Below are positions 6,106-55,571 of a DNA stretch of 64,000 bases, piece by piece. The notes beneath the pieces were generated by a model. The model made no database searches. It was not told the origin of the DNA and saw only the letters and a list, made by a program, of their open reading frames with translations. The DNA comes from a virus: positions 1 to 64,000 of IMG/VR virus record IMGVR_UViG_3300042691_041718. One strand, given 5' to 3'. The translations under genes and the position numbers were made by a program. The number at the start of each line of letters is the position of its first letter. Within the stretch, counting starts at the first letter, position 1.

Positions 6106-7176
6106 ATGAATAAAGACTATTATACTATTTTAGGAGTTAATAAAGGAGCAACTGATGATGAAATTAAAAAAGCTTATCGTAAGATGGCTATGCAGTTTCA
6201 TCCAGATAAAAATCCTAATAATCCAGAAGCAGAGGCTAAATTTAAAGAGGCGGCTGAAGCTTATGAAACTCTTAGCGATCCTTCTAAACGCCAGAGTTAT
6301 GATAGATTTGGTTCAACTGGTGGTAATCCATTTGGAGGAGGTAATCCATTTGGTGGTGGTCACGGATTTTCAATGGATGATATATTTTCACAGTTTGGTG
6401 ATATCTTTGGTGGTAATCCTTTTGGTGGAAGACAACAACAAAGACAAAGAACTAAAAAAGGTGGTGATTTAAGAATTAAAGTTGTTGTTAATATTGATGA
6501 GATACTTAAAGGAACAACTAAAAAATTAAAATACAGAAGACAAGTAAAATGTAATCCTTGTGATGGAAAAGGAGGTTCTGATGTAAGAGAATGTTTAGTT
6601 TGTAATGGAACAGGACAAAGAGTTGTTGTTCAAAATACACCATTTGGACAAGTAAGAACTCAAACACATTGTCCAGATTGTGGAGGTTCTGGTGAACAAA
6701 TTCACAATAAGTGTAATCATTGCCATGGAGATGGTACTACTTTACAAGAACAAGTAGTTGATATTCAAGTACCAGCAGGTGTTTCAAATGGAATGCAGTT
6801 GAAAATGAATGGTAATGGAAATGATGTTAGAAATGGAATACCAGGTGATCTTTTTATTATTATAGAAGAAGCTCAAGACTTCTCATTCAAAAGAGAAGGT
6901 AATAATATAGTTGTAGAAAAAACAATATCTGTTATAGATGCTCTTTGTGGTAATAATATAACTGTATCAACACCACATGGTGATATACCGGTTTTAGTTG
7001 AAGCTGGAACAGAACACGGGAAAACAATTAGAATTTCAGGTAAAGGTATTCCAGACTTAAATTATGGTTTAGGAGATCTTTATATAAAATTTAATTTGAA
7101 AATACCAAAAGATATTCCACTTGATGAAAGAATGATTTTAGAGAAGTTTAAAAACTCAAATACATTTAAAGTATGA
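6106..7176 (+). CDS. dnaJ: Chaperone DnaJ (type I)
   Basis: J-domain with HPD, G/F-rich linker, four CxxCxGxG repeats. Confidence 0.97.
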
Positions 7177-7346
7177 AAGTAGAAATAGTTGATGGTAAAT
7201 ATATTTTACACGGAGTTTTACAAAAATTTGATCGAATGAATAGGAATAATGGTAGAATATACCCAGATAATTTGTTCATTGAAGAATTGAGACGATGGAT
7301 AATTTCAAATAGACAATCTAAAATTAGAAAAATATATTCAAAATAA
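7173..7346 (+). CDS. 57-aa mini-protein resembling the N-terminus of T4 gp21-type prohead protease, plus C-terminal tag
   Basis: [57 protein letters not shown]; ATGA overlap with dnaJ; followed by terminator. Confidence 0.65.
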
Positions 7347-8476: not shown

Positions 8477-9378
8477 ATGGAAGAAATAAAATATACTATA
8501 TACAAGCTCATAGACCCAATATCTAATGAAATTAGATATATTGGATTAACATTTAATGATTTAAAACAAAGACTTAAATCTCATTATTCGGAAAACTCAA
8601 AATCTCATAAATCAAATTGGGTTAAAAGTTTAAAATTAAATGGTTTAAAACCTATAATTGAGTCAATTGAGGAGAATATATTATCATATAATGAGGTATG
8701 CGAAAGAGAAATATATTGGATTGATAAATTTAAAAGTGAGGGACATCCTCTGACAAATACGGACTCAGGTGGAAATAAGAATAAAAAAATGTCCGATGAA
8801 ACAAAGAAAAAAATGTCTGAATCACAGATTGAAAGGTATAAAAACTATAAACTTATTCTATCAGAGGAAACTAAGAAAGAATTGAGTATTAAAGCTAAAG
8901 AACGTTTTAGTAAAGAAGAAGAACGTGATAAATTAAGAATATCTAATAAAAGATATGAGGATTCTAAAACAGAAGAACAAAAGTTAAATGATATCTTAAT
9001 ACAAGACTGTAAATCGGTTTATCAGTATGATATTGATATGAATTTAATAAATATTTACCCCTCAATAAATAACGCTTCTAAAATAAATAACCTATCACAT
9101 GGCAATATATCAAAATGTTGTAAGAATAAAGTTAAAATGGTTGGTGGATATGTGTGGAGATTTGAAGGTGATCTAACACCGGTTAGTTTTAATAAAGGAG
9201 GTGATAAATTCAAACCGATATATCAATATGATTTAAATGGAAATTTCATAAAAGAGTATGAGAATATAAAGCAGCCTCTGTTGATTTGGGTATATTGACA
9301 CAGGGTATAAGAAGTGTTTGTACTGGTAAATCAAAATCTAGTGGTGGTTATATATGGAAATATAAATCTGATATTTAA
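8477..9378 (+). mobile_element. GIY-YIG homing endonuclease with NUMOD3/NUMOD1 domains; -1 frameshift near 9268
   Basis: TIYKL..IRYIG, EREIYWI, S.ETKKKMS; second NUMOD1 completes only in the shifted frame (AASVDLGILTQGIRSVCTGKSKSSGGYIWKY). Confidence 0.85.
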
Positions 9379-9409: not shown

Positions 9410-10375
9410 ATGAAGTATTTGAAAAATATTGAAAATTTTAAAGAGAGTTTAAGAAATAATGTTAGATTGATAGAAAATGTTAACTATCACAGAACTAATG
9501 TTAAAAATCTAGGTGAAGTTATTTTACCAGATCCAGAGTTTGGAGATTTTAAATTAAGTGTTATGCCATTTGAAAATACAGGAGGTTGGGTTTCTTTACC
9601 CGAAGGATTTAAAATATGGGAGGAAGCTTTTAATGAAGTAATTAAAAATATACCTCTACAAGAAGGCGCGAATACACACTATGTTACAATTGATACTAAA
9701 TTCTTCACAACTGATGAGTTTCTTAGAAGAGAAGGAGTTCATATTGATGGTAATTTTTGTGTTGATCCTAACTTCAAAAAATTAAACGAGACAAAAGTTG
9801 ATGATGTTTTAAGTGATGATTTCTTCGATGATGTTGAAGATTACGAGGATGAATTTAAAGCTTCTTGGGGTGGTGCTGAACCAAAGCCAAGTTGGGGTGG
9901 TGCTGAACCAAAGCCAAGTTGGGGTGGTGCTAGGTACGATGATGATTTTAAAGCTTCTTGGGGTGGTGCTGAACCACAACCAAGTTGGGGAGGTGCTCGT
10001 ATAAAAGAGTATCAATATGAAGCTAAGTCTGATAACTCTCATGTTAAAATGGATTGGGTATTACCGTATAAAGATGTTATTATTCCAATTGCTGATTATG
10101 TGTCTGAAAGTAAAGGAGGTATTCTAACTGTATCAACTGAAGTTGGGTGTCAGGCTTGGAGTGGTGAGTTCTATGGTGAGATTTTAGGAGAAGGTTCATT
10201 TGAAAAAATGCAAGAACAATTGACCGATGATAGAAAAGTTGTATTTGAAAAGAATCAATTGTATTTTATGTCAAGTAATACACCACATGAAACTCTTTTG
10301 ATTAGTAAAGGTAAACGTAGAACATTTATGAGAATTACATTAAACCACAATTATGAAAATAAAAATATAAAGTAA
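9410..10375 (+). CDS. Putative 2OG-Fe(II) dioxygenase with SWGGA repeat insertion and CTS-like leader
   Basis: RREGVHIDG (HxD), distal PHET, RTFMR; leader MKYLKNIENFKE. Confidence 0.6.
   Translation: MKYLKNIENFKESLRNNVRLIENVNYHRTNVKNLGEVILPDPEFGDFKLSVMPFENTGGWVSLPEGFKIWEEAFNEVIKNIPLQEGANTHYVTIDTKFFTTDEFLRREGVHIDGNFCVDPNFKKLNETKVDDVLSDDFFDDVEDYEDEFKASWGGAEPKPSWGGAEPKPSWGGARYDDDFKASWGGAEPQPSWGGARIKEYQYEAKSDNSHVKMDWVLPYKDVIIPIADYVSESKGGILTVSTEVGCQAWSGEFYGEILGEGSFEKMQEQLTDDRKVVFEKNQLYFMSSNTPHETLLISKGKRRTFMRITLNHNYENKNIK
9852..9997 (+). repeat. Coding tandem repeat, 27-bp unit (SWGGAEPKP), five SWGGA copies
   Basis: TTGGGGTGGTGCTGAACCAAAGCCAAG repeated directly; higher-order duplication of FKASWGGAEPxPSWGGAR. 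Confidence 0.95.
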
Positions 10376-11001
10376 TGAAATACATAAAGAGTTATAACGA
10401 AAATAAAGTTCATTCTTATGATTCAATGGATACAGAGGATCTTGAAGAGTTATTACATTGGTCAAGAATTGAATATAACGAATTGGGTGATAAAATTAGA
10501 GATATAAATGCTGTTCTAACAAAAAGAAAAGAAGAGGGTGAAGAATCTCATTCTAAGTCATTACCGGTTAGTATATTTGATTTTAATAAAGAACAATGTG
10601 ATTGGATATTTGAACACGGTCATGGAACAACGAGTAAAAAATATAATATCTCAAATAAGTATTTTGAACAACTTAAAGGTTTTTTTACATCTGGATTTAA
10701 TCCAGATACAAACCAATTTGCTTTTAAATTAAGTAAATTCTATTTCGATAATACTGATTTAGATTTAATCATAAAAAGTATGAAATTTTTAGGTGATAAC
10801 TTAAAAAGAGTTAATTATACAATAAATGGTGAACATAAAGATATTGTTCAGTTTGGTGTTCAATATGAACATTTAGAAGATTATGATCATAAGGTTAATT
10901 ATGTTAGTGAGAATGAATTATATCTCGTTCAATATAGAACTAAAAAGTTTGATAGTATCAAATCTCTAATAGATTATATTATATCAATAGATAATGAATA
11001 A
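10375..11001 (+). CDS. Hypothetical protein with CTS-like leader
   Basis: Starts MKYIKSYNE. Confidence 0.7.
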   Translation: MKYIKSYNENKVHSYDSMDTEDLEELLHWSRIEYNELGDKIRDINAVLTKRKEEGEESHSKSLPVSIFDFNKEQCDWIFEHGHGTTSKKYNISNKYFEQLKGFFTSGFNPDTNQFAFKLSKFYFDNTDLDLIIKSMKFLGDNLKRVNYTINGEHKDIVQFGVQYEHLEDYDHKVNYVSENELYLVQYRTKKFDSIKSLIDYIISIDNE

Positions 11002-11028
11002 AAAAAACCAGTCATTGACTGGTTTTTT
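11002..11028. terminator. Bidirectional intrinsic terminator
   Basis: AAAAAACCAGTCA-T-TGACTGGTTTTTT. Confidence 0.85.
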
Positions 11029-11030
11029 GT

Positions 11031-12050
11031 TTACTTATTAAATCTATTAAAAGCGTTATCACTAATTTGAATCCACTCAACTTCTCCACAGTATTCTTCT
11101 AAAGTTCTACACCCGGTATAAGACATAGCAGACTTTAAATAATCTGTAAAGTTTTCACACCAACCAGATAATTTATATTCTACATTATTATATTTACTAA
11201 TGCCTTCTCCAGTTTTAATTACTTTTCTATTCCAAGACTTTTGAACTTCTTTTGTTGACATACCTCTATAATACTTATAGATAGTAGCACCTTCATCAAA
11301 GTATTTCTCAGCTTCTTCTTTAGATAGTTGTGTAAAGTCTCCTAATTCGTTTTTAGAAAAACTATCACTACAACTTTCTAAACATTTGTTGAAAACACCA
11401 CCCAACATAACAGCATCAGCACCCATCGCTAAAGCTTTAATTATATCTGAAAAGTTTTTAAATCCACCATCAGCGATAATCTTTGTTGGTTTATCAACAC
11501 CATAAGAAAGATCTTTACATTCTCTTATTAAAGAAGCCATTGGATAGTGAATAGCGACGTTAGCTGAAGTTGTACAAGCAGAACCACCACCAATACCAAC
11601 TCTGATCCAATCAACACCAATTTCACAAAATTCTCTATAAGTTTTTGGATTAGCGATATTACCAACCATAAGTTCAATGTTGTCTCCAAATTTTTCCTTT
11701 AATAGTTTAGAAACCTCCCAAAGTCTAAGCATATTTCCGTTTGCTACGTCAATAAGAACCTTCTTTGGTAATTTAGAATCTGAATTGTATAAATTGTAGA
11801 TTTCGTCTAATCCATAAGAGTAAAAATAGTTATCATTTTTTAAAGTATCATACTTAACATTTCTTGGTAAGCAAATGTTTATATAGTTTTTTTCAAATTC
11901 ATTTATGTTTTTCTCATCTATTACTGTATCCATAGGAGCTGTAAATAGTGGTAACTTATCATTTAAATATGGATTTATCTCACTTCTTGAAGAAATTGAA
12001 GAGATCATCGCTGGTACTATACTAATATCATTCCAATCAAGTTTTATCAT
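11031..12050 (-). CDS. IMP dehydrogenase / GMP reductase family protein (no CBS domains)
   Basis: TAPMDTV, IDVANG, VGIGGGSACTT catalytic loop, IADGG, GADAVMLG, YRGMST. Confidence 0.9.
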   Translation of the reverse strand: MIKLDWNDISIVPAMISSISSRSEINPYLNDKLPLFTAPMDTVIDEKNINEFEKNYINICLPRNVKYDTLKNDNYFYSYGLDEIYNLYNSDSKLPKKVLIDVANGNMLRLWEVSKLLKEKFGDNIELMVGNIANPKTYREFCEIGVDWIRVGIGGGSACTTSANVAIHYPMASLIRECKDLSYGVDKPTKIIADGGFKNFSDIIKALAMGADAVMLGGVFNKCLESCSDSFSKNELGDFTQLSKEEAEKYFDEGATIYKYYRGMSTKEVQKSWNRKVIKTGEGISKYNNVEYKLSGWCENFTDYLKSAMSYTGCRTLEEYCGEVEWIQISDNAFNRFNK

Positions 12051-12127
12051 AAGGAAAATTTATTTTTTTATCATATGTCCATTAGCAGACATTCGTAATT
12101 TAATATATATATTAAATTACGAATCTT

Positions 12128-12775
12128 ATGTTATTAACAAAAAAGATAAAAACGACAATAGTTCCTCTAAACTATAACAGACTAAGTGAATTTTATGATG
12201 TTAAGATGTATGATATTATAGAAATTGACATAAATCATTTATCTCATAAAAGTCCAATTATAATAGATTGTTGTTGTGAAATATGTGGATCTCATAAAAA
12301 GCTACAATATAGAGCCTATTTGAGGAATAAAAGTAGATATAATTATTATTCATGTAAAGGTTGTAAAAATAAAAAGACTTCTATTACAAAAGAAAGAATA
12401 TATGGTGACTCAAAATATAATAATTCGAATAAGATGATAAAAACTAAAGAGGAAAAGGGTATTTATATACCATTTGAATCTTCTATTGATTTTAAAAAAT
12501 ATAGAAAATTAGTTAATAGAATAACCAATAGAAATAAACCTTATTTATTTGAGATTTGGGATGGTCTTGATTTTTATGATAAAGAGAACATTTTGGAAAA
12601 TATGAAATTAAACTCCAATGATATGTCATATCCGACGATAGACCATAAAATATCAATTTATCAAGGTTTTAAAGAGTCTATACCACCTTATATCATAGGT
12701 GGTATAGATAATTGTTGTATAACAAAAAGAAGAATAAATTTACTTAAAAGTAATAAATATAATTTTGAATATTAA
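12128..12775 (+). mobile_element. Putative HNH homing endonuclease
   Basis: CEICG..CKGC zinc motif, PTIDHKISI..GF, N..KS. Confidence 0.7.
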
Positions 12776-13086
12776 TAAAAGCTATACTTATCTTCTTCTT
12801 TTACACAATAAATAGATGCTGGATACATTCTCAACTCACCTTCAGTTTCCTCAACGATAAATCTCATTGAACCATCGATAATTTCTTGATTACAGATTTT
12901 AACTGTTGAGTTTTTAACTTCTTTTAAGATTTCAAATGCTTCTGGTTCTATGTCACTAGACATAACTAAGTAATTACTTTTACCAAATAATTTACCATTA
13001 GTTCCTTCCTCAAAGTAGGATTTTTCAATAATAGATTTTAAAACTTCTGAGTTTTGAAACTCAATTTTAACTTCGTGTTTTAACAT
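12772..13086 (-). CDS. Hypothetical protein
   Basis: 104-aa ORF in minus-strand run. Confidence 0.65.
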   Translation of the reverse strand: MLKHEVKIEFQNSEVLKSIIEKSYFEEGTNGKLFGKSNYLVMSSDIEPEAFEILKEVKNSTVKICNQEIIDGSMRFIVEETEGELRMYPASIYCVKEEDKYSFY

Positions 13087-13110
13087 TTTATGTTGTTTTA
13101 TAATTAATTA

Positions 13111-13332
13111 CTAAATATGATATGAGATATTTATTGATGTTATATCATCAACACTTATTACGGGTTCTGTGTTTAAAATTTCCACAAATAATTCCCATGA
13201 ATCATGTGATTGATAATCACTATGATTTTTATTTATCTTCTTAATAATAGGTATTAAGGAGTTTACTTGAGTATGTGTTACCTCAATTTCTTTTCTTAAA
13301 TCTTCTGTGTCTATAATCAAAAAAGCTCTCAT
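13111..13332 (-). CDS. Hypothetical protein
   Basis: 73-aa ORF. Confidence 0.55.
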   Translation of the reverse strand: MRAFLIIDTEDLRKEIEVTHTQVNSLIPIIKKINKNHSDYQSHDSWELFVEILNTEPVISVDDITSINISYHI

Positions 13333-13348
13333 ATAAACATTGTATATC

Positions 13349-13732
13349 TTACACAGCTAAAAGTTTTTTTATTTCATCACTTCCATCCGGATTTGCTGAA
13401 TGAATAATATATTCAGGAAAGTTTAAGTTTCTTTCTTTACAATAGTTAAGTAAAAAAATAACACAATCCAATCCAGTATAAACTCTATTTTCATCTAGAT
13501 TAAACCAATATTCAAATGGAAGTTCTTCTTTTAATTCTTCAACATCAGCTAAATCATAATCAAATGCTACTAAATCTGGTATACCATTTTCAATTATCCA
13601 AGATTTAAATTGACCATACGATCTTACTATATCCCATTCTTCGTGGAATACGGTACAATTCACCTTTCTTTGCCACATATAAGTAGCACAGTCTCTAGGA
13701 ATTCGCCAATCGTCTAAAAATAACCTTTTCAT
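13349..13732 (-). CDS. Cyclic-phosphate-processing Receiver-like domain protein
   Basis: RLFLDDWRIP, AFDYDL, TGLDC, IHSANP.G; start moved to 13732 because the upstream ATG lies in the promoter. Confidence 0.75.
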   Translation of the reverse strand: MKRLFLDDWRIPRDCATYMWQRKVNCTVFHEEWDIVRSYGQFKSWIIENGIPDLVAFDYDLADVEELKEELPFEYWFNLDENRVYTGLDCVIFLLNYCKERNLNFPEYIIHSANPDGSDEIKKLLAV

Positions 13733-13770
13733 AATAGCAAACATACGGATAATTTTTTAATATATAAAAT

Positions 13771-14334
13771 ATGATTTGTAAAAAATGTTCCATTGATAAA
13801 GAGTTGAGTGATTTTCACAAGAAGAAAAATTCTAAAACTGGATATCAAATTTATTGTAAAGATTGCTCAAAAGATATGGTTAAAAAACATTACAAATCAA
13901 ATACTAATAGAGTTTTAGAAAGAAAACGATTATATAGGAATACCGGTGATTATAAAATAAAATCAAAGAATTATGAGAGTAGTTATTCGGAGAGAAGAAA
14001 GGAACTTAGAAAAAATAATCTAAATATTAGAATCGGAAATTCAGCTAGGGATATTCTAAGAAGATGTTTAAAATATTTTGGAGTAAAAAAGAATAAAAAA
14101 ACATTTGAGATTTTAGGGTATAATAGTCTTAAATTGAAACAAAGAATAGAATGTCAATTTAAAGACGGAATGTCTTGGGATAATTATGGTGAATGGCATA
14201 TTGATCATAAAAAACCAATAAGTAAATTTAATAAAAATACAAAATTGAGTACAGTAAATTCTCTATCAAACTTACAACCACTTTGGGCAAAAGATAATTT
14301 GTCAAAAGGTAATAAATTTAAAGAAACGGCTTAG
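13771..14334 (+). mobile_element. HNH homing endonuclease
   Basis: CKKC..CKDC, WHIDHKKP, NLQPLWAKDNLSKG. Confidence 0.88.
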
Positions 14335-14376
14335 GACCCGTTATAGTTAAAGCCCCTCTGGGTGGACTATATTTTT

Positions 14377-14416
14377 GAAAACCACTGAATTCGCTCCTCG
14401 GTGGTTTTCTTTTTTT
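14377..14416 (+). terminator. Intrinsic terminator-like hairpin upstream of nrdB
   Basis: GAAAACCACTGA / TCGGTGGTTTTC stem followed by a T-run. Confidence 0.7.
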
Positions 14417-14469
14417 AAAAACTAAACAAATTTCAAATTGAATATATAAAAAAAACAAAATAAATTATT

Positions 14470-15429
14470 ATGGAAGAACATATTTTAAAAGAAAACAAAA
14501 GTCGTTTTGTGATGTTTCCGTTGAAATATCATGACATTTGGGAAAAGTATAAAACTGCTGAAATGTCATTTTGGACGAGCGAAGAGATTGATTTAGCACA
14601 AGATTTAACTGACTGGAATGAAAAATTAAATGATGATGAAAAACATTATATTAAAAATGTTTTAGCATTCTTCGCTGCATCTGATGGTATCGTAAATGAA
14701 AACTTAGCTGAGAATTTCTTAAAAGAAGTTCAGTATCCAGAGGCTAAAAGTTTTTATGGTTTTCAAATAGCAATGGAGAATGTTCACTCTGAAACTTACT
14801 CTTTATTGATTGATACTTATATCAAAGATTCTAAAGAAAGAGATCATTTATTCAATGCTATTGAAACAGTACCATCTGTTAAAAAGAAAGCTGAGTGGGC
14901 ACTTAAATGGATTGAATCTGATTCATTTGCTGAAAGATTAATTGCCTTTGCTGCTGTTGAAGGTATCTTTTTCTCTGGATCATTCTGTTCTATTTTCTGG
15001 TTAAAGAAAAGAGGTTTAATGCCAGGTTTAGCATTCTCTAATGAGTTAATTTCAAGAGATGAAGGTTTACACTGTGAGTTCGCTTGTTTGTTACATAACA
15101 AATACATCACGAATAAAGTTAGTGCTGAAAGAATTACTGAGATTATTACTGAAGCAGTTGAGATTGAAAAAGAATTCGTTACTGATTCTTTACCAGTTTC
15201 TTTAATTGGTATGAACGCTAAGATGATGCAACAATACATAGAGTTCGTTGCTGACTTCTGGTTAACTGAATTAGGTTGTAAGAAAGTTTATAACTCTGAA
15301 AATCCTTTTGATTTTATGGATATGCTTTCTTTACAAAACAAATCTAACTTCTTCGAGAAAAGAGTTTCTGAATATCAAAAAGCTTCTGATAAGAATATTG
15401 ACTTTGATAGTTTAGATGATGATTTCTAA
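14470..15429 (+). CDS. nrdB: Ribonucleotide reductase class Ia beta subunit
   Basis: [47 protein letters not shown]. Confidence 0.97.
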
Positions 15430-15769
15430 GATTGATTTTTTAAAGGACTTTAAATTCATTGCAAAACCAGATGAATATTATGTTGGTGGAACCGAAGTTA
15501 CAATAGAATCTGATTACACTGAATGGAATCAAAATCTATTAGTTTCAAGTGGTTGGGGATTTTTCAGAGGACTTACAATGGTTTCGTATAGAGGATATGA
15601 TGGTGAATTACCAAGAATGGATGGAGACACTGCTAGTTTTGCTGAGTTTGATATTTATTACAAAGATGAATTATTAAGTGAAGAAATTACATATGGGGAT
15701 TTACTTAATATGATTAAGTCTGAATCGAGAAATGAAATAATAGAAGAAATAATAAAACCACTCAATTGA
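15416..15769 (+). CDS. Hypothetical protein with C-terminal RNxxI tag
   Basis: Ends [14 protein letters not shown]. Confidence 0.65.
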
Positions 15770-15780
15770 GTGGTTTTTTT

Positions 15781-16086
15781 TTATTTTAAGTGTTTTTTGA
15801 TTTCACTTTTAATTTTTCCTAATTGGTCGTATTTGAATTCTTCGGCTTTCTCACCTACTTTCTTAACACCAACATAATCTTTACGGAACATTACTTGAAC
15901 TTTAACATCTTCTAAGTTAACTTCTAAATCTGTACCAACAGTTTTAACTTTAGCGTCTTTCATATTTTTCAAGAAGTTCTCAATAGTTTCTCTGAATTTT
16001 TCAACTTTAACATCAGAATCAGATGATTTAGATGCTTTCATTGTTTTACCTTCGTTGAACATATCCCAAGTTTTGATATTTTTCAT
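15781..16086 (-). CDS. Hypothetical protein with CTS-like leader
   Basis: Starts MKNIKTWDMFNE; TAATATATA upstream. Confidence 0.7.
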   Translation of the reverse strand: MKNIKTWDMFNEGKTMKASKSSDSDVKVEKFRETIENFLKNMKDAKVKTVGTDLEVNLEDVKVQVMFRKDYVGVKKVGEKAEEFKYDQLGKIKSEIKKHLK

Positions 16087-16130
16087 CTTGTCGTTTTATT
16101 TTTATATATTAAAAATTAAATATATAAATA

Positions 16131-16493
16131 ATGAAAAAACTTAAATTATTTGAGAGTTTTAACTTTGAATCCGAATTATCGGACTTAGTAAACTCTATAC
16201 CCGATTCTGATATTCCATCTCAAACAAATATCATAACTAAAATTGGAGATAAAATTATTTATACCGAAGGTTGGTGTGATAGATGTTTTTCAAACTATGA
16301 TGTTTATGATAGAGATGAAATGGTACAAATGGCTAAAGAACTTGGTGAAAAGAGATTAAAAGATATTCCAAGATTACCACAATATAAAATTAGGTTTGAA
16401 GGATATGAATTAGAAGATGTTAAGTTCTATGATTTACCGGATAACTCATATAATTATGCACTGTCGGTTGGTATTTATAGTCGTAAAAATTAA
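16131..16493 (+). CDS. Hypothetical protein with CTS-like leader
   Basis: Starts MKKLKLFESFNFE. Confidence 0.7.
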   Translation: MKKLKLFESFNFESELSDLVNSIPDSDIPSQTNIITKIGDKIIYTEGWCDRCFSNYDVYDRDEMVQMAKELGEKRLKDIPRLPQYKIRFEGYELEDVKFYDLPDNSYNYALSVGIYSRKN

Positions 16494-16503
16494 TATATAG
16501 AAT

Positions 16504-16794
16504 ATGAAGATATTGAAATTTGAAGAGTTTAGTATAAATGAGGCTTTACCTCGTCAACAAACAGTAGATCAGTTAAAAAAAGTTATGAAGATGTCAGCTA
16601 AAACTGATATTGGTAATCGTATTTCTGATATGAATAAACAAGGTGCTAACATTCAATATATTGAAAATCCTATTGATAGTGGTATTGAGTCATATGAAGA
16701 CTATGAAAAACACAACAAGAAGTTTGTCTCTTCTTGGAACTTAAAAGGTATGTTAGGTCCGTTTAAAGGTGAAGATAATAAACAAAATAAATAA
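16504..16794 (+). CDS. Hypothetical protein with CTS-like leader
   Basis: Starts MKILKFEEFSINE. Confidence 0.7.
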   Translation: MKILKFEEFSINEALPRQQTVDQLKKVMKMSAKTDIGNRISDMNKQGANIQYIENPIDSGIESYEDYEKHNKKFVSSWNLKGMLGPFKGEDNKQNK

Positions 16795-16797
16795 ATT

Positions 16798-17265
16798 GTG
16801 AAAAGGATAAAAAGTTTTAAGTTGTTTGAATCAACAGGTAGTAAAATGACGGCAAAAGATAGAGTTGTTGTTCTATCTGAGGTTAGAGAGGATATAGAAG
16901 GTATACTTTATGAGTTAGAAGATCATTTAGTTGATTGTAAAGTAAATATTCAATCTATTTATTTAAAAAATGAGGATAGATTTGGTCGTTCTTGTGATGA
17001 TTTTAGTTCAACCTTTCATGGTGATGATGATGGAAATGGTTTAATGCTTATGGTTACTATGGATGAAGTTGAACAAGATAAAAATAAAGATTTATTAGAA
17101 AGGTTTCTTCGTTTATTAAAAGAACATTTAGATTATGTGTGTATTGGTAATAGAATAGGAATGTCTAGTAATAGAGTTCGTGTTGCGTACACAATTGATT
17201 TGAGAGGTTATATGAATAAATTGATGGACAATCTTGAAGAAAATAAAAAAGTAAATAAAATATGA
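16798..17265 (+). CDS. Hypothetical protein with CTS-like leader (GTG start)
   Basis: Starts MKRIKSFKLFES. Confidence 0.7.
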   Translation: MKRIKSFKLFESTGSKMTAKDRVVVLSEVREDIEGILYELEDHLVDCKVNIQSIYLKNEDRFGRSCDDFSSTFHGDDDGNGLMLMVTMDEVEQDKNKDLLERFLRLLKEHLDYVCIGNRIGMSSNRVRVAYTIDLRGYMNKLMDNLEENKKVNKI

Positions 17266-17606
17266 AAAGGATAAAAAGCTTTAAGTTGTTTGAATCTGTT
17301 TTAGAATTACCTGATAAGGAATATATTGAAGATGTTTTGATGGAACTACCAAGTTATTTTAAATATACTATTAGTTATTTTGATAAACCAGTTGATCAAG
17401 TTACAATCGATATCTCATCAAAGAATAAATTTACTTTAGATGAAATATCAGATGTATTTAACCATTTGGATAATTATCTTAAAGGATTTGGATTCAGATT
17501 GTATAGAAGAGGAGAAGTTGATTCTAAATCAATTAGAAATCCAGCGACATTCTCAATTGATTATATCAATTATAATTTACACATATCATATATAAGAAGA
17601 AATTAA
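17262..17606 (+). CDS. Hypothetical protein with CTS-like leader
   Basis: Starts MKRIKSFKLFES, same leader as previous gene. Confidence 0.7.
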   Translation: MKRIKSFKLFESVLELPDKEYIEDVLMELPSYFKYTISYFDKPVDQVTIDISSKNKFTLDEISDVFNHLDNYLKGFGFRLYRRGEVDSKSIRNPATFSIDYINYNLHISYIRRN

Positions 17607-17629
17607 TAATTAAAATTAATATATACATT

Positions 17630-18274
17630 ATGAAATATTTGAAAAGATTTAATGAGGCTGTAATTCAACCATATGATTTCACGGAAGCTCTTGAAAAAGT
17701 TAGATCAATGAGTAACATAACATTAGATAACTTAAAAGAGATATTCAATGATATGAATGTTGAGTTTGTTGATGTTGAATACTTTAAATCTAAACTACAA
17801 ACAAAAAAGGAAATCGAGTTGGTTCCGGTTGATATGCCTCCATTAATGGGTGGTATTCGATGGGGAGCTCATAATGTTTATACTAATAAAATGTATATCT
17901 GTATAGATGAGAATGAGTTTATAAAGTCTATTAATAGTCCATTAAAGAATAGGTTATTAGACTTTTTGGAAGAAGTATTAAGACACGAATCTGTACATAA
18001 ACAACAAGCTCAAAGAAGACCAGATGTAACTATAAGAAACTTAGAAAGATCACCAGTGGATCATAAGAAATATTTTAGTTCAACCGATGAAGTTATGGCT
18101 TATGCTGACTCATTTATTGTTCAATGTAGAAAAGTGGGAATGAGTGATGATGATATTTTAGATGTTTTGAGAGGTGGTAAAAAAGTATCTTGGATTCAAA
18201 ATGTTTATTCTTCTATGGATTTAGAAACTCAAAAGAGATTTAAAAAATATGTATATGAATACATTAAAAAATAA
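17630..18274 (+). CDS. Hypothetical protein with CTS-like leader, possible zincin-like motif
   Basis: MKYLKRFNE; LRHESVHKQQ (HExxH) and downstream DEVMAYA. Confidence 0.6.
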   Translation: MKYLKRFNEAVIQPYDFTEALEKVRSMSNITLDNLKEIFNDMNVEFVDVEYFKSKLQTKKEIELVPVDMPPLMGGIRWGAHNVYTNKMYICIDENEFIKSINSPLKNRLLDFLEEVLRHESVHKQQAQRRPDVTIRNLERSPVDHKKYFSSTDEVMAYADSFIVQCRKVGMSDDDILDVLRGGKKVSWIQNVYSSMDLETQKRFKKYVYEYIKK

Positions 18275-18284
18275 AAAATACAAT

Positions 18285-18515
18285 ATGAAATACTTAAATA
18301 AATATAATGAAAATAATAGTCAGATGAAACAATTTGTTTTAACGACTACAAGTGAAAGTTCTGATCACTACATCTATTTTATTGAGCACCCACAAATGCC
18401 TACAAGAGAAGAGTTAAATAAGTTTCTAGTTGAACAAGGTAGTGATGTTTCTGATGGTGAATCTTATGAAGATATTGATATGTGTGTTGAGATAAATAAT
18501 TTCAAGAGAATTTAA
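18285..18515 (+). CDS. Hypothetical protein with CTS-like leader
   Basis: Start reassigned to MKYLNKYNE. Confidence 0.65.
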   Translation: MKYLNKYNENNSQMKQFVLTTTSESSDHYIYFIEHPQMPTREELNKFLVEQGSDVSDGESYEDIDMCVEINNFKRI

Positions 18516-18530
18516 AAAATAAAAATAGAT

Positions 18531-18854
18531 ATGAAATATTTAAAAACGTTTGAAGGTTATAATGATAAGAGTTTAGCTGAAGAAATTGCTGAAGATATTC
18601 TACCAAAACTAGAAGAAATTAAAAAGGAAAAAGGTAAGTTCACAGTAGGTATGTTTGATAATTACATGGAAGAAAGAAAAGGTGATATGAAACTAACCGA
18701 TGAAGTTATGTCTGAATTGGTAAATATGGGTTTTGATTTTGATTCGGATGACGATGATGAAGATTATTATGATGAAGATGAAGACGATGATCAAGATGGA
18801 CCACCTCCAGGATTTGAAGGTTATCCTGGCCCAGGTTATTATAGTTTAAACTAA
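18531..18854 (+). CDS. Acidic hypothetical protein with CTS-like leader
   Basis: MKYLKTFEGYN; D/E-rich tail. Confidence 0.7.
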   Translation: MKYLKTFEGYNDKSLAEEIAEDILPKLEEIKKEKGKFTVGMFDNYMEERKGDMKLTDEVMSELVNMGFDFDSDDDDEDYYDEDEDDDQDGPPPGFEGYPGPGYYSLN

Positions 18855-18855
18855 T

Positions 18856-18890
18856 AAAAAAAAAGAGTGATTATAAATCACTCTTTTTTT
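18856..18890. terminator. Bidirectional intrinsic terminator
   Basis: A-run GAGTGAT..ATCACTC T-run. Confidence 0.8.
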
Positions 18891-19272
18891 CTTCATTGAG
18901 ATATTTTATAAAATCAACTACTGTTCTCCAGTAGTTTTCTATTTTACTACCTTTTGAGTTTAGTCCGTTATACTCTACTTTTTTATAGACTTTACCACTA
19001 TATGGACATTTTTCTTCTATTAAACATCTATGACCAGATAAAGTAACCCAATTATAAATATCTTCTTCTAATTTATCAATCACTCTAAAGAGTGAGTCAT
19101 ATGAAATATGATATCTTAGTGTTCCATATTCTTCACTACAAAGACTCGCGGCTACCCATAAGTCTTTAGTTTCAATTCCACCCTCATAAGTATCTGATTT
19201 AAGAAGTTCCCAGTTAGGAACCATAAACTCAGCTATGATTTTATTGCCTTCTATTATTTCTTCACTAGTCAT
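18871..19272 (-). CDS. Hypothetical protein
   Basis: 133 aa, GNKIIAEFM start and YHISYDSL segment. Confidence 0.65.
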   Translation of the reverse strand: MTSEEIIEGNKIIAEFMVPNWELLKSDTYEGGIETKDLWVAASLCSEEYGTLRYHISYDSLFRVIDKLEEDIYNWVTLSGHRCLIEEKCPYSGKVYKKVEYNGLNSKGSKIENYWRTVVDFIKYLNEEKKSDL

Positions 19273-19442
19273 TATTTCAAAACCATATATTTAACACCAT
19301 CTACGATTTTGGTAACATATTTACCAGTTTCTTTTTTCTCAGCATTTTTAGTAGCTCTTTTGGTAGCAACTTTACCACCTTTAGATTTTTCTACTTCTCC
19401 ATACTTTTGTTTTAAAACCTCTTTCATTGAATATCTTTCCAT
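19272..19442 (-). CDS. Small basic hypothetical protein (56 aa)
   Basis: MERYSMKEVLKQKYGEVEKSKGG...; TATATTTG promoter at 19471..19464. Confidence 0.65.
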   Translation of the reverse strand: MERYSMKEVLKQKYGEVEKSKGGKVATKRATKNAEKKETGKYVTKIVDGVKYMVLK

Positions 19443-19508
19443 AACTCGTCTTATTTTGTTTTACAAATATAATAACTTTTTTGGAATGGCGATATAAATA
19501 TATAGAAT

Positions 19509-19679
19509 ATGATAAAAAAATATATTGAGTTTATAAATGAGGGGGTTTATCCATATGGATGTATTTTATTAGAAACACCTATTGAGATGTATAAAAAAAT
19601 AGTTGATTTCTTAAACCAATATAAAAATGTCGATATAATGAAATATCAAGTTGAACGTATTAAAACAATTAGAAAATGA
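19509..19679 (+). CDS. 56-aa protein with CTS-like leader MIKKYIEFINE
   Basis: Hand-translated; AATATATA upstream; ATGA overlap with next ORF. Confidence 0.65.
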   Translation: MIKKYIEFINEGVYPYGCILLETPIEMYKKIVDFLNQYKNVDIMKYQVERIKTIRK

Positions 19680-19918
19680 ACCCATATTATATAAGTGTTG
19701 ATCCATATAGAAATGATGTTGGATATAATTCTTTTTTAAGAGCTCAAAAAATCTTAAAAATTTTTAGGGGTGAAGTAATTGATAATTCACATAATAATTA
19801 TTTTGATAGTAGATGGTATAAGCCAGATTATTCTCAATACACAAAAGAGAGTTTGGGTAGTATTGCTTATACAGAATATTTATCTGAAAAGATTATGGGA
19901 ATTAACCAACAAAATTAA
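19676..19918 (+). CDS. Hypothetical protein with internal RxxKI tag
   Basis: LRAQKILKIF. Confidence 0.55.
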   Translation: MNPYYISVDPYRNDVGYNSFLRAQKILKIFRGEVIDNSHNNYFDSRWYKPDYSQYTKESLGSIAYTEYLSEKIMGINQQN

Positions 19919-23929: not shown

Positions 23930-26059
23930 ATGGCTAAGATTTCAAAATATTTAAAATTAGATAAAGATATATTATTAGAATATATTTATAATGATGGTAA
24001 TCTTATAGCTGAGAAATATCAAATATTAATTGACTCAAGAGATAGAAGAAGATCATACGTTGGTGATCCAGATGGTGTTTCTGGTAATATACCATCAAAT
24101 CAACTTTTTAGATTAGATGCAATATCAGGTAAGTTTTCAGTAGTTGATACGACTTACTATTCATATTTACAATATAAAGACTATTCAGTTGGTATACCAG
24201 TCAGACATGATACAGTTAAAATTCATATTCCAGTAAACTGGACTTTCGGTGAGCATTTAGGTTTTTATATTAAAGTTTATACATTTGATAGAACAAATAC
24301 AATAAGTTTTGATTTATCAAATTTCTTTTTTGACATGACTAATACTAGTCAATCAAATTTACTAAATTATTCAGCACCACCACTTTATTTTCAAGAAAAA
24401 CTATGGGGTAAAAATATATCAATTGATATACCAGCTGTTAGTGAAGTTGCAGCTCAACTAACTGGAGAATATCCAAAAGAAAATAGTATTAATTTTAATT
24501 TAACGGATGGTATTGGTTTAAGCTCAACATCTCCAATTTTCATAGATTTTTACTTTGTTGATGGTATTGAGACGATTAATGGTAGAACAAATTATATTTT
24601 AGGAACTAAAGTTACGACAACTTTACCACAAACACCAGAATTTGAAAGATTAGGATTAAAAATTCAACACTCATCCGATGGTGATTATTTTGAAATATTT
24701 GGAACATATAATAATAATATTGCTGAGTTTAAAAAGTTTATTGATGATTCTGTAAGAGAAGGACGTAGATACTATGTTCAGTATGATATTATTACTTATG
24801 AGCAAAATATAAGAGGTAAAAAGACAACAGTTACTATAAATGATGGTTTTAACGAAACAGTTGATTATAGACCAATTATTAAATTCTCAACAACAACCGC
24901 AATTATAGATGTTGAAATGAGACTTATAGATTCAGTTGATGATTCGTTTATATTAAGAAGAGCTTCTTATGGTATGTTACAAGATGAAATAACCAAATAT
25001 AGCATACGTTTATCTAAAATAAATTTAGATAACGCATTAAAACCAAAAGTTTATAATATTAAAAATAATATAGATGCTGCTTTATTAGGGAATACTAACT
25101 CTTTAGGTAAATCAAATTCTGTATCTGGTAGAAATTTTGGAAAACAAATAGGTGTTGGATATAAAAATGGAATAGCTATAGGAAAAGCACTATTTTCTGG
25201 ATCAAATGGAACATTTAAAGATCTATTAGCTTTACAAAATCAAGGAAACAATATTAATAATACAAATGGTTTAGGAACCGGTACTGGAAACGGAACAGGC
25301 ACTGGTACAGGTGCTGGTACAGGTGCTGGTACAGGTGTTGGTACAGGTGCTGGTACAGGAACCGGAGCGGGTGGTTCTGGTAATCCAAATGGTGGTTATC
25401 CTAATGTAAACACAGGCGCTGGTGGTGCTGGTGGCGGAAACGGAGCGGGTCTTGGTGGAGGCGGTGGTGCTGGAAATGTACAAGTCCAAGAAGTAAAAGT
25501 ACCTTTTCCAGTTTTTGTTGATAGATTTAATATTATAGCAAAATCAGAAAACTCAATAGTTAATAGCACAACTTTCTATGGTATTGGAAAATTACAAGTA
25601 TTAATATATCCATTTGATAACATAATGAAGTTTGTTATTGCAAGTGGTGTTAGTACACAACCAGACTATTTAGATTTAACATCTTTTACAGAAGTTAAAA
25701 TGGTTATAAAAAATGATACATCATCACATGATTTTAAATTGATGACTGAATCAAAAGAAGTAAACTTAAAGTTAGGACAAGTTGTATTTAAAATACCTGA
25801 ATCTAAATTTTTAAATGTTAAAAAGATTTATGATGCTAAAGTAAATATTTTTTATATTGTTGGTACAACAGGTGCTAATAGTACAGTTATTTATACTGGA
25901 TTATTTAAAATTTACGACAGTCTTGATAATATTCAAATTCTTAATAATGAAGCTCCTAAGGCACCAGATATCATTAAAGATCCTAAGATGCCAAAAGAAA
26001 CTGCTATCGTTACTAGAAAGTTAATTTCAGGTCAAACAACACCTAATAAAAAACCATAA
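23930..26059 (+). CDS. Putative virion structural protein with Gly/Thr-rich linker
   Basis: 709 aa, beta-rich composition, late-type promoter, next to tail-tube-like gene. Confidence 0.55.
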   Translation: MAKISKYLKLDKDILLEYIYNDGNLIAEKYQILIDSRDRRRSYVGDPDGVSGNIPSNQLFRLDAISGKFSVVDTTYYSYLQYKDYSVGIPVRHDTVKIHIPVNWTFGEHLGFYIKVYTFDRTNTISFDLSNFFFDMTNTSQSNLLNYSAPPLYFQEKLWGKNISIDIPAVSEVAAQLTGEYPKENSINFNLTDGIGLSSTSPIFIDFYFVDGIETINGRTNYILGTKVTTTLPQTPEFERLGLKIQHSSDGDYFEIFGTYNNNIAEFKKFIDDSVREGRRYYVQYDIITYEQNIRGKKTTVTINDGFNETVDYRPIIKFSTTTAIIDVEMRLIDSVDDSFILRRASYGMLQDEITKYSIRLSKINLDNALKPKVYNIKNNIDAALLGNTNSLGKSNSVSGRNFGKQIGVGYKNGIAIGKALFSGSNGTFKDLLALQNQGNNINNTNGLGTGTGNGTGTGTGAGTGAGTGVGTGAGTGTGAGGSGNPNGGYPNVNTGAGGAGGGNGAGLGGGGGAGNVQVQEVKVPFPVFVDRFNIIAKSENSIVNSTTFYGIGKLQVLIYPFDNIMKFVIASGVSTQPDYLDLTSFTEVKMVIKNDTSSHDFKLMTESKEVNLKLGQVVFKIPESKFLNVKKIYDAKVNIFYIVGTTGANSTVIYTGLFKIYDSLDNIQILNNEAPKAPDIIKDPKMPKETAIVTRKLISGQTTPNKKP
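25304..25360 (+). repeat. 12-bp coding tandem repeat GGTACAGGTGCT (GTGA)n
   Basis: Four near-perfect units plus a partial unit. Confidence 0.9.
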
Positions 26060-26076
26060 AAATTAATAATAAATAA

Positions 26077-26721
26077 ATGAGGTTAAGTTCACAGTCCAGT
26101 CAGTTTATATTTAATTTACCGAGTAACTTTTTAAAGCCAGAGTTAGTTGAGACATATAAGCCTATTCTTGAAAAGAATTGGGTTCAATACGAAAATATAA
26201 TAGATTATATTAACTCTACTATTAAATCTGTTAACTTTCCAGGTATTTCTATTGATTTACCAAAACAAGTTCTACCAAGAGGTAAAGAAAGACAATTCAA
26301 ACCTGCTAAAAATGTTCAGGATATATCAACAACTCACGAGTTAACAATAACTTTTAGATCTGTTGACTCTGATTTAAATTATTGGCTTTTATTTGATATT
26401 GTAACAAAACACTATTTAGATTTAGATAATCAATTTCTTTATCCATTTACTATTACTTGTGTTGATATACACAGAGATGCTATCTATATAATTCGATTTT
26501 ATGAAATAATATTAAAAGCTTTAAGTGATAATACATTTAATTACTCACAACAAAAAGTAACATCTAAAGAATTTACAATGACATTTCATTTTAACTTCTA
26601 TGATATTGAGTTTCTTTATAATAAAGCAAAAATACTTGAAGACTTTGATACACCAGTTATTATTGATAATAATTTAATAGGTGATAACTACTTAGTTGCT
26701 CATTGGAGAAAAAAAAGGTGA
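26077..26721 (+). CDS. Tail tube / tail completion fold protein (gp19/gp3/gp54-like)
   Basis: SVNFPGISI, ELTITF..DSDLNYW, F..TFHFN.YDI pattern. Confidence 0.55.
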   Translation: MRLSSQSSQFIFNLPSNFLKPELVETYKPILEKNWVQYENIIDYINSTIKSVNFPGISIDLPKQVLPRGKERQFKPAKNVQDISTTHELTITFRSVDSDLNYWLLFDIVTKHYLDLDNQFLYPFTITCVDIHRDAIYIIRFYEIILKALSDNTFNYSQQKVTSKEFTMTFHFNFYDIEFLYNKAKILEDFDTPVIIDNNLIGDNYLVAHWRKKR

Positions 26722-26741
26722 TTAATTTAATCACCTTTTTT
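26710..26741. terminator. Bidirectional intrinsic terminator
   Basis: AAAAAAAGGTGATT..AATCACCTTTTTT. Confidence 0.8.
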
Positions 26742-26888
26742 GTATATTTTATTAATTTTATTTCTTCTACTCATTGTTACTTTTGGAAAAAGTCTAAATA
26801 GTTCATTCATAATTTCTTTATCAATAGACTTAGCTAATTCTTGAGAAAGTAACTTCGATAACTCATCACTGGGATTAAACTGTTTCAT
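26727..26888 (-). CDS. 53-aa mini-protein resembling a gp23-type major capsid segment, plus C-terminal tag
   Basis: MKQFNPSDELSKLLSQELAKSIDKEIMNELFRLFPKVTMSRRNKINKIYKKGD; start overlaps the end of 26875..27558. Confidence 0.6.
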   Translation of the reverse strand: MKQFNPSDELSKLLSQELAKSIDKEIMNELFRLFPKVTMSRRNKINKIYKKGD

Positions 26889-27558
26889 ATAATTCTCCTG
26901 GATATGGATTTTGGTAATGATCAACATCTGATGTATGAGCATTATAGTATTTTGATTCTGGTAATTGACAAACCCACATTTCACACATCATTCTCCATTT
27001 CAGATAATCATTATTAGGCATCCAAGTGATTGGATTACATAAATTTTTAATATGTGAAGATTTACTCCACCAAAAATTACCAGAATAATGTTTAGGGGCT
27101 TTACCATATCCCCAATACATAGGATGAAATTTGATATCTTCTGGATTACCTCTTAAATTAACACCAGTACAATCATTCTCTTTTAACTCTTCTAATCTAT
27201 CTTCCCATTTATTTATACTAAAATAAGATAAGTAATTAGTCCAATCCGTTATAAAAGGATGATTTCTACTTACTCCTTTTGTGTGTAAATAAAGAACATT
27301 GAAATCTTCGTCTTGTGAATGTTTCCAAATTAGATCTAAAGTTGGAAACTCATTATATGAAGTATCTTTATATTTATTCCAAATTTTATATTTAGGATCA
27401 TCTAAATTCACCTTTAATAAGTTTATATCACCATTAATGACTAAATTGATTACATCACAATTTTCGTATAAACTACTATCTTTAATTCTATTTAATAGGT
27501 TTGTCAAAACTTCATTAACAGAACCCATCACAGCAACATTTATATAAACTCTATTCAT
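26875..27558 (-). CDS. Glycosyltransferase-like protein
   Basis: VLYLHTKGVS, HYSGNFWW, E.W motifs; in glycan cluster. Confidence 0.6.
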   Translation of the reverse strand: MNRVYINVAVMGSVNEVLTNLLNRIKDSSLYENCDVINLVINGDINLLKVNLDDPKYKIWNKYKDTSYNEFPTLDLIWKHSQDEDFNVLYLHTKGVSRNHPFITDWTNYLSYFSINKWEDRLEELKENDCTGVNLRGNPEDIKFHPMYWGYGKAPKHYSGNFWWSKSSHIKNLCNPITWMPNNDYLKWRMMCEMWVCQLPESKYYNAHTSDVDHYQNPYPGELYETV

Positions 27559-53891: not shown

Positions 53892-54377
53892 ATGTATAAT
53901 CAAAAATTATTTATGGGAAAGATAGAAAAATATAAAGACTTCGCAAGAAAGTTTCAACACAAGTGGAACCAAGACACTCCAACTGAAATAAATCTACCTA
54001 GTTATTTAGATGAAGAGGAAGAGAAAAAGAAGATTGAGATGGAACAAGAGTTAGAAAATGGAGAAGATGAAATAAGTGAAAGCTATTTAAACTCTAAAGA
54101 ACTAATTTTTACAGGAAAAAGAAATAGAAATTTACAAATAACAGTTGTATTAGATAGTTCAATGAGAATAGAATCAATTGACAATAAAGCTAATATTAGA
54201 TTTCCTTTCCATGTTGGTCAAAGAATAAATAGAAATATTGAGGTTTGGGCTTGTAATAACAACTTCTTATTAAACGGAGAAGATACTTGTCCAGAGAAAA
54301 AGATATTTGGTGTTAGAGCATCTGATGTACCACAAGGTCACGAGTGGAGAAAAATATACCCAGGTAAATTTAAATAA
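53892..54377 (+). CDS. Hypothetical protein
   Basis: Late-type promoter; probable start MGKIEKYKDF. Confidence 0.65.
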   Translation: MYNQKLFMGKIEKYKDFARKFQHKWNQDTPTEINLPSYLDEEEEKKKIEMEQELENGEDEISESYLNSKELIFTGKRNRNLQITVVLDSSMRIESIDNKANIRFPFHVGQRINRNIEVWACNNNFLLNGEDTCPEKKIFGVRASDVPQGHEWRKIYPGKFK

Positions 54378-54769
54378 TGAAACACCTAAGAAAGTTTAAC
54401 GAAAGTATAAATGAGCATCTTGATATAGAATATATCAAACATTGTTTTAATGACTTATCAGATGATCCAGAATGTGATGTAGAATATGATACACATGAAG
54501 ATTATCTACGTGATAATCCAAACGATGAAATCACACTTAATGACGAATATGTTGATTTAACCATAGATATCCCTAGAATAACTAAGGGTGGAACTTTTGA
54601 AAGAATGATTGGTAATTCTGAAAGAATATCACATATTATTAAATCAATTGATATCTCAATCAAAAGATTAAAAGATGAATATCCTAATTATAATATTGAA
54701 ATAAATTACGAAGAGGATGATGATAGACCAAATGACTACTTCCAGATAAATATAAATAATAAAAAATGA
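54377..54769 (+). CDS. Hypothetical protein with CTS-like leader
   Basis: MKHLRKFNE; paralog of 55149. Confidence 0.75.
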   Translation: MKHLRKFNESINEHLDIEYIKHCFNDLSDDPECDVEYDTHEDYLRDNPNDEITLNDEYVDLTIDIPRITKGGTFERMIGNSERISHIIKSIDISIKRLKDEYPNYNIEINYEEDDDRPNDYFQININNKK

Positions 54770-55152
54770 AACACCTAAGAAAATTTAATGAAAGTTTTGA
54801 AGATGAAACTAAATCATATCTAGAAACACTTTTTGCTGATATCTCAGAGAGTGGTTACTATAATGTTAATATTTTGATAGCAAAACCAATAAGAGTGGAA
54901 GGTGTTCAATGTGTTTATGTTGAAGTTAAATTGGAACCTGTTGAAGGTAAATTATGGAATAGATCACCATATGGAAATGCTGGTTTTTTAAAAGCGTCAA
55001 TTGAAAATGAGATGGAAATATTAAGAATTAAACAAGAAACACTTAATAGTATAAACGCCATAATTAAAGATATAGAAAGTGAAGGAAATGAAGTTAACTT
55101 CATTGTAAATAGAATTGGTGAGTTAAAAATAAATATTGAATATAAAGTATGA
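54766..55152 (+). CDS. Hypothetical protein with CTS-like leader
   Basis: MKHLRKFNE. Confidence 0.75.
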   Translation: MKHLRKFNESFEDETKSYLETLFADISESGYYNVNILIAKPIRVEGVQCVYVEVKLEPVEGKLWNRSPYGNAGFLKASIENEMEILRIKQETLNSINAIIKDIESEGNEVNFIVNRIGELKINIEYKV

Positions 55153-55571
55153 AACACCTAAGAAAATTTAACGAAAATACCGATAATTCAATTGATGTTG
55201 AGTATATCAAACATTGTTTCACTGATTTAGTGGAATATTCATATAATGAAGATAATGAATGTGGTGAATTCCGTTGGGGCAATTCAGAAACACTTGAAGA
55301 AGTAACCGAAAGTGGAAACCCAACAGATTGTAGAGTATTTATAAATTGTCCTGAGTTAGAAGTGAAATTCACAGCAGATGGATATAAAGGAGAAATATCC
55401 GACTTTATTGAATTTAATAAAATAACAAATGAATTCCTTCTTAAATTGGAAGGTGCTATAAATAACCTAAAAGACGAATATCCTAATTATAAAGTGGAAG
55501 TTTTGTATGAACAACCTTTATTAAGAGGTCATCAAGGATATGATTACTATTGTGTATGTATTAGTTTATAA
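55149..55571 (+). CDS. Hypothetical protein with CTS-like leader
   Basis: MKHLRKFNE; shares EYIKHCF.DL and LKDEYPNY with 54377. Confidence 0.75.
   Translation: MKHLRKFNENTDNSIDVEYIKHCFTDLVEYSYNEDNECGEFRWGNSETLEEVTESGNPTDCRVFINCPELEVKFTADGYKGEISDFIEFNKITNEFLLKLEGAINNLKDEYPNYKVEVLYEQPLLRGHQGYDYYCVCISL

Follow-up and report, generated by a model that had tools for sequence, protein, structure and literature searches.

From sequence comparisons, the last gene of a phage glycan operon, here called mini-gene B, appears to encode a real, selected accessory mini-protein composed of two modules: a helix of roughly 30 residues that descends from the spine helix of a T4-type (Gp23/gp24) capsid protein and, behind it, a short amphipathic C-terminal module, the tag, that is found on about one protein in twelve of this phage lineage. 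New for the lineage are the size of the family to which B belongs, its syntenic anchoring, the basic F/Y subtype of the tag on fragment genes, a PCNA-like clamp, and a tag-like polymerase tail.

The window analyzed here covers the opening 64 kb of a viral record of 186,465 bp (27.8% G+C; 69% complete according to CheckV). At the B locus it contains the following features.

26727–26888, minus strand: mini-gene B, an intact open reading frame (ORF) of 53 amino acids, given with its stop codon, which closes the minus-strand glycan operon
26888–26886, minus strand: ATG start codon of B
26729–26727, minus strand: stop codon of B
26790–26879, minus strand: spine-helix segment of Gp23/gp24 type, B residues 4–33, from profile matches and an AF2 model
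26742–26768, minus strand: C-terminal tag 9-mer R-R-N-K-I-N-K-I-Y, B residues 41–49, of the basic F/Y subtype of the phage-wide tag
26875–27558, minus strand: upstream gene of 227 amino acids without a Pfam match
26895–26898, minus strand: GGAG, 6 nt 5' of the B ATG and within the final codons of the 227-aa gene
26711–26741, both directions: predicted bidirectional intrinsic-terminator hairpin with a 14-pair stem and a U tract (RNA fold z = -4.8)

The original prediction had placed B at 26727–26888 as the final gene of a glycan operon, and both points hold: the frame has 53 codons on the minus strand, and the assignment to a glycan operon is correct because the upstream genes include a UDP-galactopyranose mutase and two GT11 glycosyltransferases, together with a DUF3431 protein. 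The end of the 227-aa gene overlaps the start of B by 14 nt, and the GGAG ahead of the start codon is not kept among relatives. The 5' arm of the terminator hairpin contains the final codons of B, and a convergent gene of 214 amino acids terminates at the same hairpin. Elsewhere in the window (23930–26059, plus strand) lies a gene for a conserved 709-aa protein with a long glycine-rich low-complexity stretch and no Pfam match, whose DNA is about 70% identical to genes in 634- to 642-kb phages.

The resemblance to a conserved gp23 segment, which had been noticed by eye, is weak in this copy and clear across the family. B residues 4 to 33 match positions 168 to 197 of the 376 positions of PF07068 (Gp23) with an E value of 0.0055 and 16.6 bits, which lies under the Pfam gathering cut-off of 24.4 bits, and B matches PHROG 138 ("major head protein") with an E value of 0.0089; these are its best matches in Pfam and PHROGs, respectively, and both are marginal. 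Each of the seven aligned family members, by comparison, matches PF07068 individually (best E value, 6.2e-7), and the homologue in the 385-kb relative G003 reaches 25.7 bits in a genome search. Among solved chains, the B-family profile finds T4 gp24 residues 189 to 224 best (E value, 0.038) and also T4 gp23 residues 269 to 309, and in the capsid protein of the clade itself it aligns with residues 330 to 366 (24% identity). The profile scores about 12 bits against the clade capsid proteins, 17.6 bits against T4 gp24, and 13.8 bits against T4 gp23; since the clade capsid thus scores no better than T4 gp24, the fragment is old and not a fresh copy, and a recent copy of the resident capsid gene was rejected on these scores. 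An exon or split piece of a real capsid gene was rejected as well, given that B has its own start within the glycan operon and that relatives hold an intact capsid gene of 560 to 590 amino acids elsewhere.

The AF2 model of B consists of two helices, residues 6 to 33 (pLDDT above 90) and residues 35 to 50, with a mean pLDDT of 82 and a pTM of only 0.46, and a helix of 30 residues may, on its own, neither fold nor bind. The spine-helix segment is what B has in common with T4 gp23 and the vertex protein gp24 (PF07068; PDB 6uzc, 1yue, 5vf3, and 7vs5), with which its family relatives align over a longer stretch than residues 4 to 33 of B. Unlike these proteins, B has no A-domain, P-domain sheet, or E-loop and therefore cannot be a shell subunit; its 53 residues cover about 30 of the 376 PF07068 positions, far from a complete HK97 fold, and the helix is followed by an unrelated tag.

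Homologues of B were gathered from loci related through the neighboring 214-aa gene, and they occupy the corresponding site in 13 of the 28 related IMG/VR loci and in LR745206 (634 kb) and LR756502 (642 kb). They invariably face the 214-aa gene in convergent orientation; their upstream neighbor varies by locus. Long forms of about 75 amino acids extend the match upstream into an H-Y-G-[IL]-D turn on the N-terminal side of the spine helix, and short forms, B included, begin just ahead of the helix. Conservation and dN/dS, proposed earlier as checks on B, both speak for a selected gene: in the eight members compared, the reading frame is intact, and pairwise dN/dS (Nei-Gojobori) ranges from 0.13 to 0.74 and is below 1 in all 28 pairs, with dS reaching values above 1.

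A word-based search for B returned only three proteins, whereas HMMER, run in full against 1.8 billion cluster representatives, reached 171 clusters (50% identity) that match the family profile at an E value of 0.001 or less. Among the best 149 of these 171 cluster representatives, 144 are no longer than 110 amino acids (range, 30 to 762; median, 63). A 9-mer of the form [RK]-x3-hydrophobic-x2-hydrophobic-hydrophobic stands behind the helix in 107 of the 130 representatives that have the core helix, and it ends a median of 4 residues before the C terminus. In the ESM Atlas, "Gp23 domain" fragment proteins of 74 to 90 amino acids make up at least 30 clusters, and the GenBank phage records with the family are those of two uncultured huge phages only. 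Our literature searches on such tagged capsid-helix mini-genes found no description of them. In other lineages, the metagenomic spine-helix mini-proteins P0237, P0258, and P0270 end in W-[IL]-x-x-G-G-x-N-R-A, not in the K/I-rich tag, and therefore one bait may pair with different handles.

The tag follows the pattern R-x-x-K-[IL]-x-x-[IL]-[FYL] and is present on about 8% of the phage's proteins. In its strict form it occurs three times in the six frames of the 186-kb record, every time at the C terminus of an ORF. With a broader pattern, R-[DNE...]-x-[KR]-[LI]-x-x-[LI]-[LFGIYW], 19 of 236 crude gene calls in this record end in the tag versus 4 internal matches, and 36 of 463 in G003 versus 8, and a relaxed form is found in 7.6 to 8.2% of C-terminal tails compared with about 0.25% of shuffled proteins. 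The copies differ in their codons, the DNA 3' of the stop is unrelated, and a hairpin stands behind only some of them; a DNA element, such as a mobile terminator, a promoter, or an intron end, was rejected on these grounds, and the tag is a peptide-level feature.

Two subtypes can be told apart. The one on the fragment mini-genes has F or Y as its last residue and is strongly basic, the 9-mer having a net charge of +4 or more; on other tagged proteins, the 9-mer is near neutral (about 0 to +1) and ends in L, I, or G. A Pfam scan of ten larger tagged proteins found no domain. The original prediction had paired B with a second ORF that has almost the same ending, here called mini-gene A.

7173–7346, plus strand: mini-gene A, an ORF of 57 amino acids with a prohead-protease N-terminal motif and the same tag
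7311–7337, plus strand: tag 9-mer of mini-gene A, R-Q-S-K-I-R-K-I-Y

The two endings are indeed 9-mers of the same kind, so that the idea of a common handle stands for these two mini-genes, but the handle is not special to head fragments, being found on about 8% of proteins.

Mini-gene A matches PHROG 207 (head-maturation protease) with an E value of 0.091, and its G003 homologue does so with an E value of 4.9e-4. Its start codon overlaps the stop codon of a gene for a full-length phage DnaJ (6106–7176, plus strand), an arrangement described as translationally coupled, and a terminator-like hairpin lies 3' of it. The DnaJ has a J domain, a zinc-finger center, and C-terminal domains; a second J-domain protein is encoded at positions 114964–115677 of the record, and both are conserved in G003. 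The adjacency of mini-gene A and DnaJ is not kept in G003, and DnaJ was set aside as a reader of the tag.

Beyond these two mini-genes, the wider system of tagged fragments that had been suspected finds marginal but repeated HMM matches in capsid, portal, and protease pieces, both in related phages and in the rest of the record: each match taken singly is marginal, and the top families are always T4-type head proteins. Each of five relatives holds one full capsid gene and several small ORFs that match different parts of the Gp23 profile. In G003, which was tiled completely for tagged mini-genes, three of them form a chain at 342282–342811 and correspond to pieces of the capsid protein (Gp23 positions 222 to 259; E value, 0.01), the head-maturation protease (PHROG 207; E value, 4.9e-4), and the T4-type portal (E value, 0.0087). 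Outside the window, this record encodes an 87-aa ORF that matches Portal_T4 (E value, 0.0025), a 46-aa tagged ORF with a terminase Walker-A-like string, and a 64-aa ORF with a PolB motif, and further tagged ORFs in G003 contain PolB motif-B-like and DnaB Walker-B-like strings. The genome-wide search for tag-bearing fragments therefore divides in two: portal and protease pieces are supported by HMM matches, while the terminase, PolB, and helicase pieces are short motifs recognized by eye, with no HMM support in Pfam or PHROGs. A different kind of fragment is encoded at record positions 121616–122002 (minus strand, outside the window), where the first 50 residues of a 128-aa gene product copy the N-terminal, propeptide-like segment of the capsid protein (alignment score of 139 against the clade capsid versus 31.5 +/- 4.7 for shuffles); this protein has an acidic, lysine-rich tail, and its gene is flanked by the portal-fragment ORF and a tagged ORF.

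What might read the tag is suggested by the replication genes of the relatives. A 257-aa core gene with 738 close homologues, which occupies L080:1804-2577 in G002 and is present in LR745206 and LR756502 too, has no match in Pfam or PHROGs. The AF2 model of its product (pLDDT of 84.5, pTM of 0.80) has a two-domain PCNA-like fold, and all of the top Foldseek matches of this model are PCNA or beta clamps with a probability of 1.0; by its predicted structure, this protein is a PCNA-like sliding clamp that Pfam and PHROGs miss and that is newly recognized here. It was located first by its proximity to the C-part (the C-terminal portion) of PolB and then by its fold, the Pfam gp45 families PF09116 and PF02916 having found no clamp. 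In G002, the clamp gene lies just upstream of the PolB C-part, with an IF3-like gene (by eye) nearby. Neither the clamp nor the PolB C-part was found in this record, G001, or G003, all of which presumably lack that region, and tag and clamp can therefore be paired only in G002 and LR745206.

PolB is split in this clade, and its C-terminal part ends in R-L-S-[VI]-V-x-D-I-F plus a few variable residues in 120 of 120 homologues. This tail shares the skeleton of the tag, namely R, three residues, a hydrophobic residue, two residues, a hydrophobic residue, and F; the version R-L-S-V-V-M-D-I-F fits the relaxed skeleton but is without the K at position 4. The invariant tag-like polymerase tail of this lineage is, like the clamp, newly recognized here. 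The genes for the N- and C-parts of PolB, a family B DNA polymerase, are far apart in the relatives (L072-L078) and were not found in this record; the end of the N-part and the start of the C-part are long charged helices that resemble a coiled-coil joint.

A tagged ORF is also found at a gene of late transcription. The relatives encode a gp55-like late sigma factor of 121 amino acids (L067-L071; 94 to 99% identical between phages), and in four of five relatives an ORF of 54 to 62 amino acids in another frame shares about 47 nt with the end of its gene and carries the tag at its C terminus. The ORF product may arise by frameshifting or be a coactivator in its own right; a gp33 homologue was rejected, as the product matches no solved chain and the ORF is absent in G002. 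In T4, the polymerase, the ligase, gp33, and gp55 have one common C-terminal clamp-binding tail (PMC2988020, PMC7892883). Because of this precedent, the tag-like end of PolB, the PCNA-like fold, and the tagged ORF after gp55, the clamp is the best candidate for the reader of the tag, and nothing more than a candidate. The T4-type tail and the tag are alike in being a short, interchangeable peptide with a hydrophobic-x-x-hydrophobic-hydrophobic core at the extreme C terminus of otherwise unrelated proteins. They differ in that the T4 tails are hydrophobic and acidic (PMC2988020) and belong to a few replication and transcription proteins, whereas the charge of the tag ranges from neutral to strongly basic and its carriers, about 8% of proteins, are for the most part orphans. 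The basic character of the tag on the fragment genes thus counts against the clamp as its reader, and so do the large number of clients, the ten larger tagged proteins that match no domain, and the absence of the gp55-overlapping ORF from G002.

With regard to function, we infer binding, target, and biological effect alike, and we tentatively favor a reading in which B is a molecular mimic that would occupy a partner surface of HK97-type capsid proteins, docked through its tag to a common reader, for which the clamp is the best candidate. The B helix would engage whatever normally packs on the spine helix of HK97-fold capsid proteins, be it in the phage's own capsid protein or in that of a co-infecting T4-like phage, and the tag would dock B on a reader common to all tagged proteins, possibly the PCNA-like sliding clamp of the lineage. 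The helix is constant across the 171 clusters and follows the conservation pattern of real capsid proteins; it therefore most simply retains capsid-type contacts, which is why this reading is favored. SaPI1 CpmB, the C terminus of the 80alpha scaffold, and eukaryotic microProteins occupy the binding partner of the element that they copy. Like them, B is a small helical copy of one interaction element of a larger protein, which is what characterizes microProteins, and it might, as the original prediction had it, act as a dominant-negative inhibitor. CpmB copies a scaffold tail and B a capsid helix, and a genome-wide common tag is found only in the case of B. It is also imaginable, if unlikely, that the tagged mini-genes form a "bait library", in which short, highly conserved pieces of T4-like core proteins (capsid, portal, and head protease, and possibly terminase, polymerase, and helicase) with a clamp-docking tail would be displayed on DNA-loaded clamps and capture or neutralize proteins of rival phages or host sensors.

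Capsid proteins are also objects of host immunity, and B might be a decoy or sponge, its helix imitating a short motif by which a defense system detects capsid protein and thereby occupying or mis-triggering the sensor, a role that we regard as rather unlikely. B would then be made before or alongside the capsid protein, and the other tagged fragments would mislead sensors of portal, terminase, polymerase, and helicase. In keeping with such a role, short motifs are what Lit and CapRel recognize in capsid protein, the set of fragments (capsid, portal, terminase, DNA polymerase, and helicase) overlaps the proteins sensed by Avs/STAND systems (bioRxiv 10.64898/2026.01.04.697583), and the helix is strongly conserved over 171 clusters. 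The position of the helix speaks against it. Lit, which the original prediction had cited as an example of a capsid-triggered defense, does not serve for B: the Gol peptide of T4 gp23 (Lit, EF-Tu), itself a ligand and, as a short conserved capsid segment, comparable to B, belongs to the initial quarter of gp23 (PMC3014915). The counterpart of B, residues 269 to 309, is found midway along that protein, and a Gol/Lit mimic was rejected on this basis. Avs sensors envelop the whole HK97 fold, mainly through the A-domain interface, and not one helix such as the spine helix (bioRxiv 10.64898/2026.01.04.697583). No sensor that reads the spine helix is known, the terminase, PolB, and helicase pieces are recognized by eye only, and a decoy role leaves the tag unexplained.

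B could alternatively serve the phage's own head assembly as a scaffold- or core-like accessory that attaches to the inside of the resident capsid protein and tunes the assembly or size of a very large head, with the tag as an attachment peptide comparable to the C termini of SaPI CpmB and scaffold proteins on the capsid protein. T4 itself uses small prohead core proteins, G003 has its capsid, protease, and portal mini-genes in one chain, and in this record the portal piece adjoins the gene that copies the capsid N terminus. We nevertheless consider an assembly role quite unlikely, as B lies in a glycan operon and not in a head module, occurs in no more than about half of the related loci, and has a helix that is no closer to the resident capsid than to T4 gp24. 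Moreover, the same tag is found on many small proteins that do not look structural, and polymerase-, helicase-, and terminase-like fragments do not suit a scaffold.

A different account concerns the tag, which might be a MinD-type amphipathic helix with weak membrane-targeting ability that would bring the fragments to the inner membrane, the site at which T4-type proheads begin to assemble. Its extreme C-terminal position and predicted helix would agree with this, and we presume the basic F/Y subtype (R-K-E-K-I-K-R-L-F in G003) to resemble the C-terminal membrane-targeting sequence of MinD. The proposal is a decidedly doubtful one, however, given that the tag has only three hydrophobic positions and shares its skeleton with the polymerase tail, and that the conserved R, D/N, and K of the commoner near-neutral subtype fit a specific reader better than they fit lipid. 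Last, it is highly improbable that B is a nonfunctional relic, a chance ORF in a decaying scrap of capsid gene left by recombination or mobile-element traffic, as its small size, its patchy distribution, and homing endonuclease genes nearby in the genome (e.g., 8477–9298, with a GIY-YIG motif by eye) might suggest: such a reading is disfavored by signs of selection and conservation, namely an intact frame with dN/dS below 1 in every pair, a conserved position, codon variation that preserves the peptide, and 171 clusters of small proteins with the conserved helix and a terminal tag.

If B does act as a docked capsid mimic, large phages would make small interfering or decoy proteins in a modular fashion, by joining a conserved element of an essential protein to a standard docking tail, and such mini-genes would form a new class of phage accessory gene. 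The class is abundant, a single capsid helix accounting for 171 clusters, and would bear on competition between phages, on the evasion of defenses that sense core proteins, and on the uses of sliding clamps. The clamp and the tag-like polymerase tail make the question of the tag reader testable with peptides and one purified protein.

Apart from the tagged mini-genes, many genes in the window (9410–19700, 54377–55571, and elsewhere) begin with a common N-terminal peptide, M-K-[YH]-[IL]-K-x-F-[NE]-E. Genes that resemble GIY-YIG-type homing endonucleases, by eye from the motif, are present at 8477–9298 (plus strand) in the window and at 73497–74483 and 172293–173009 of the record, and several Cys-rich putative endonuclease genes are scattered among the small genes.
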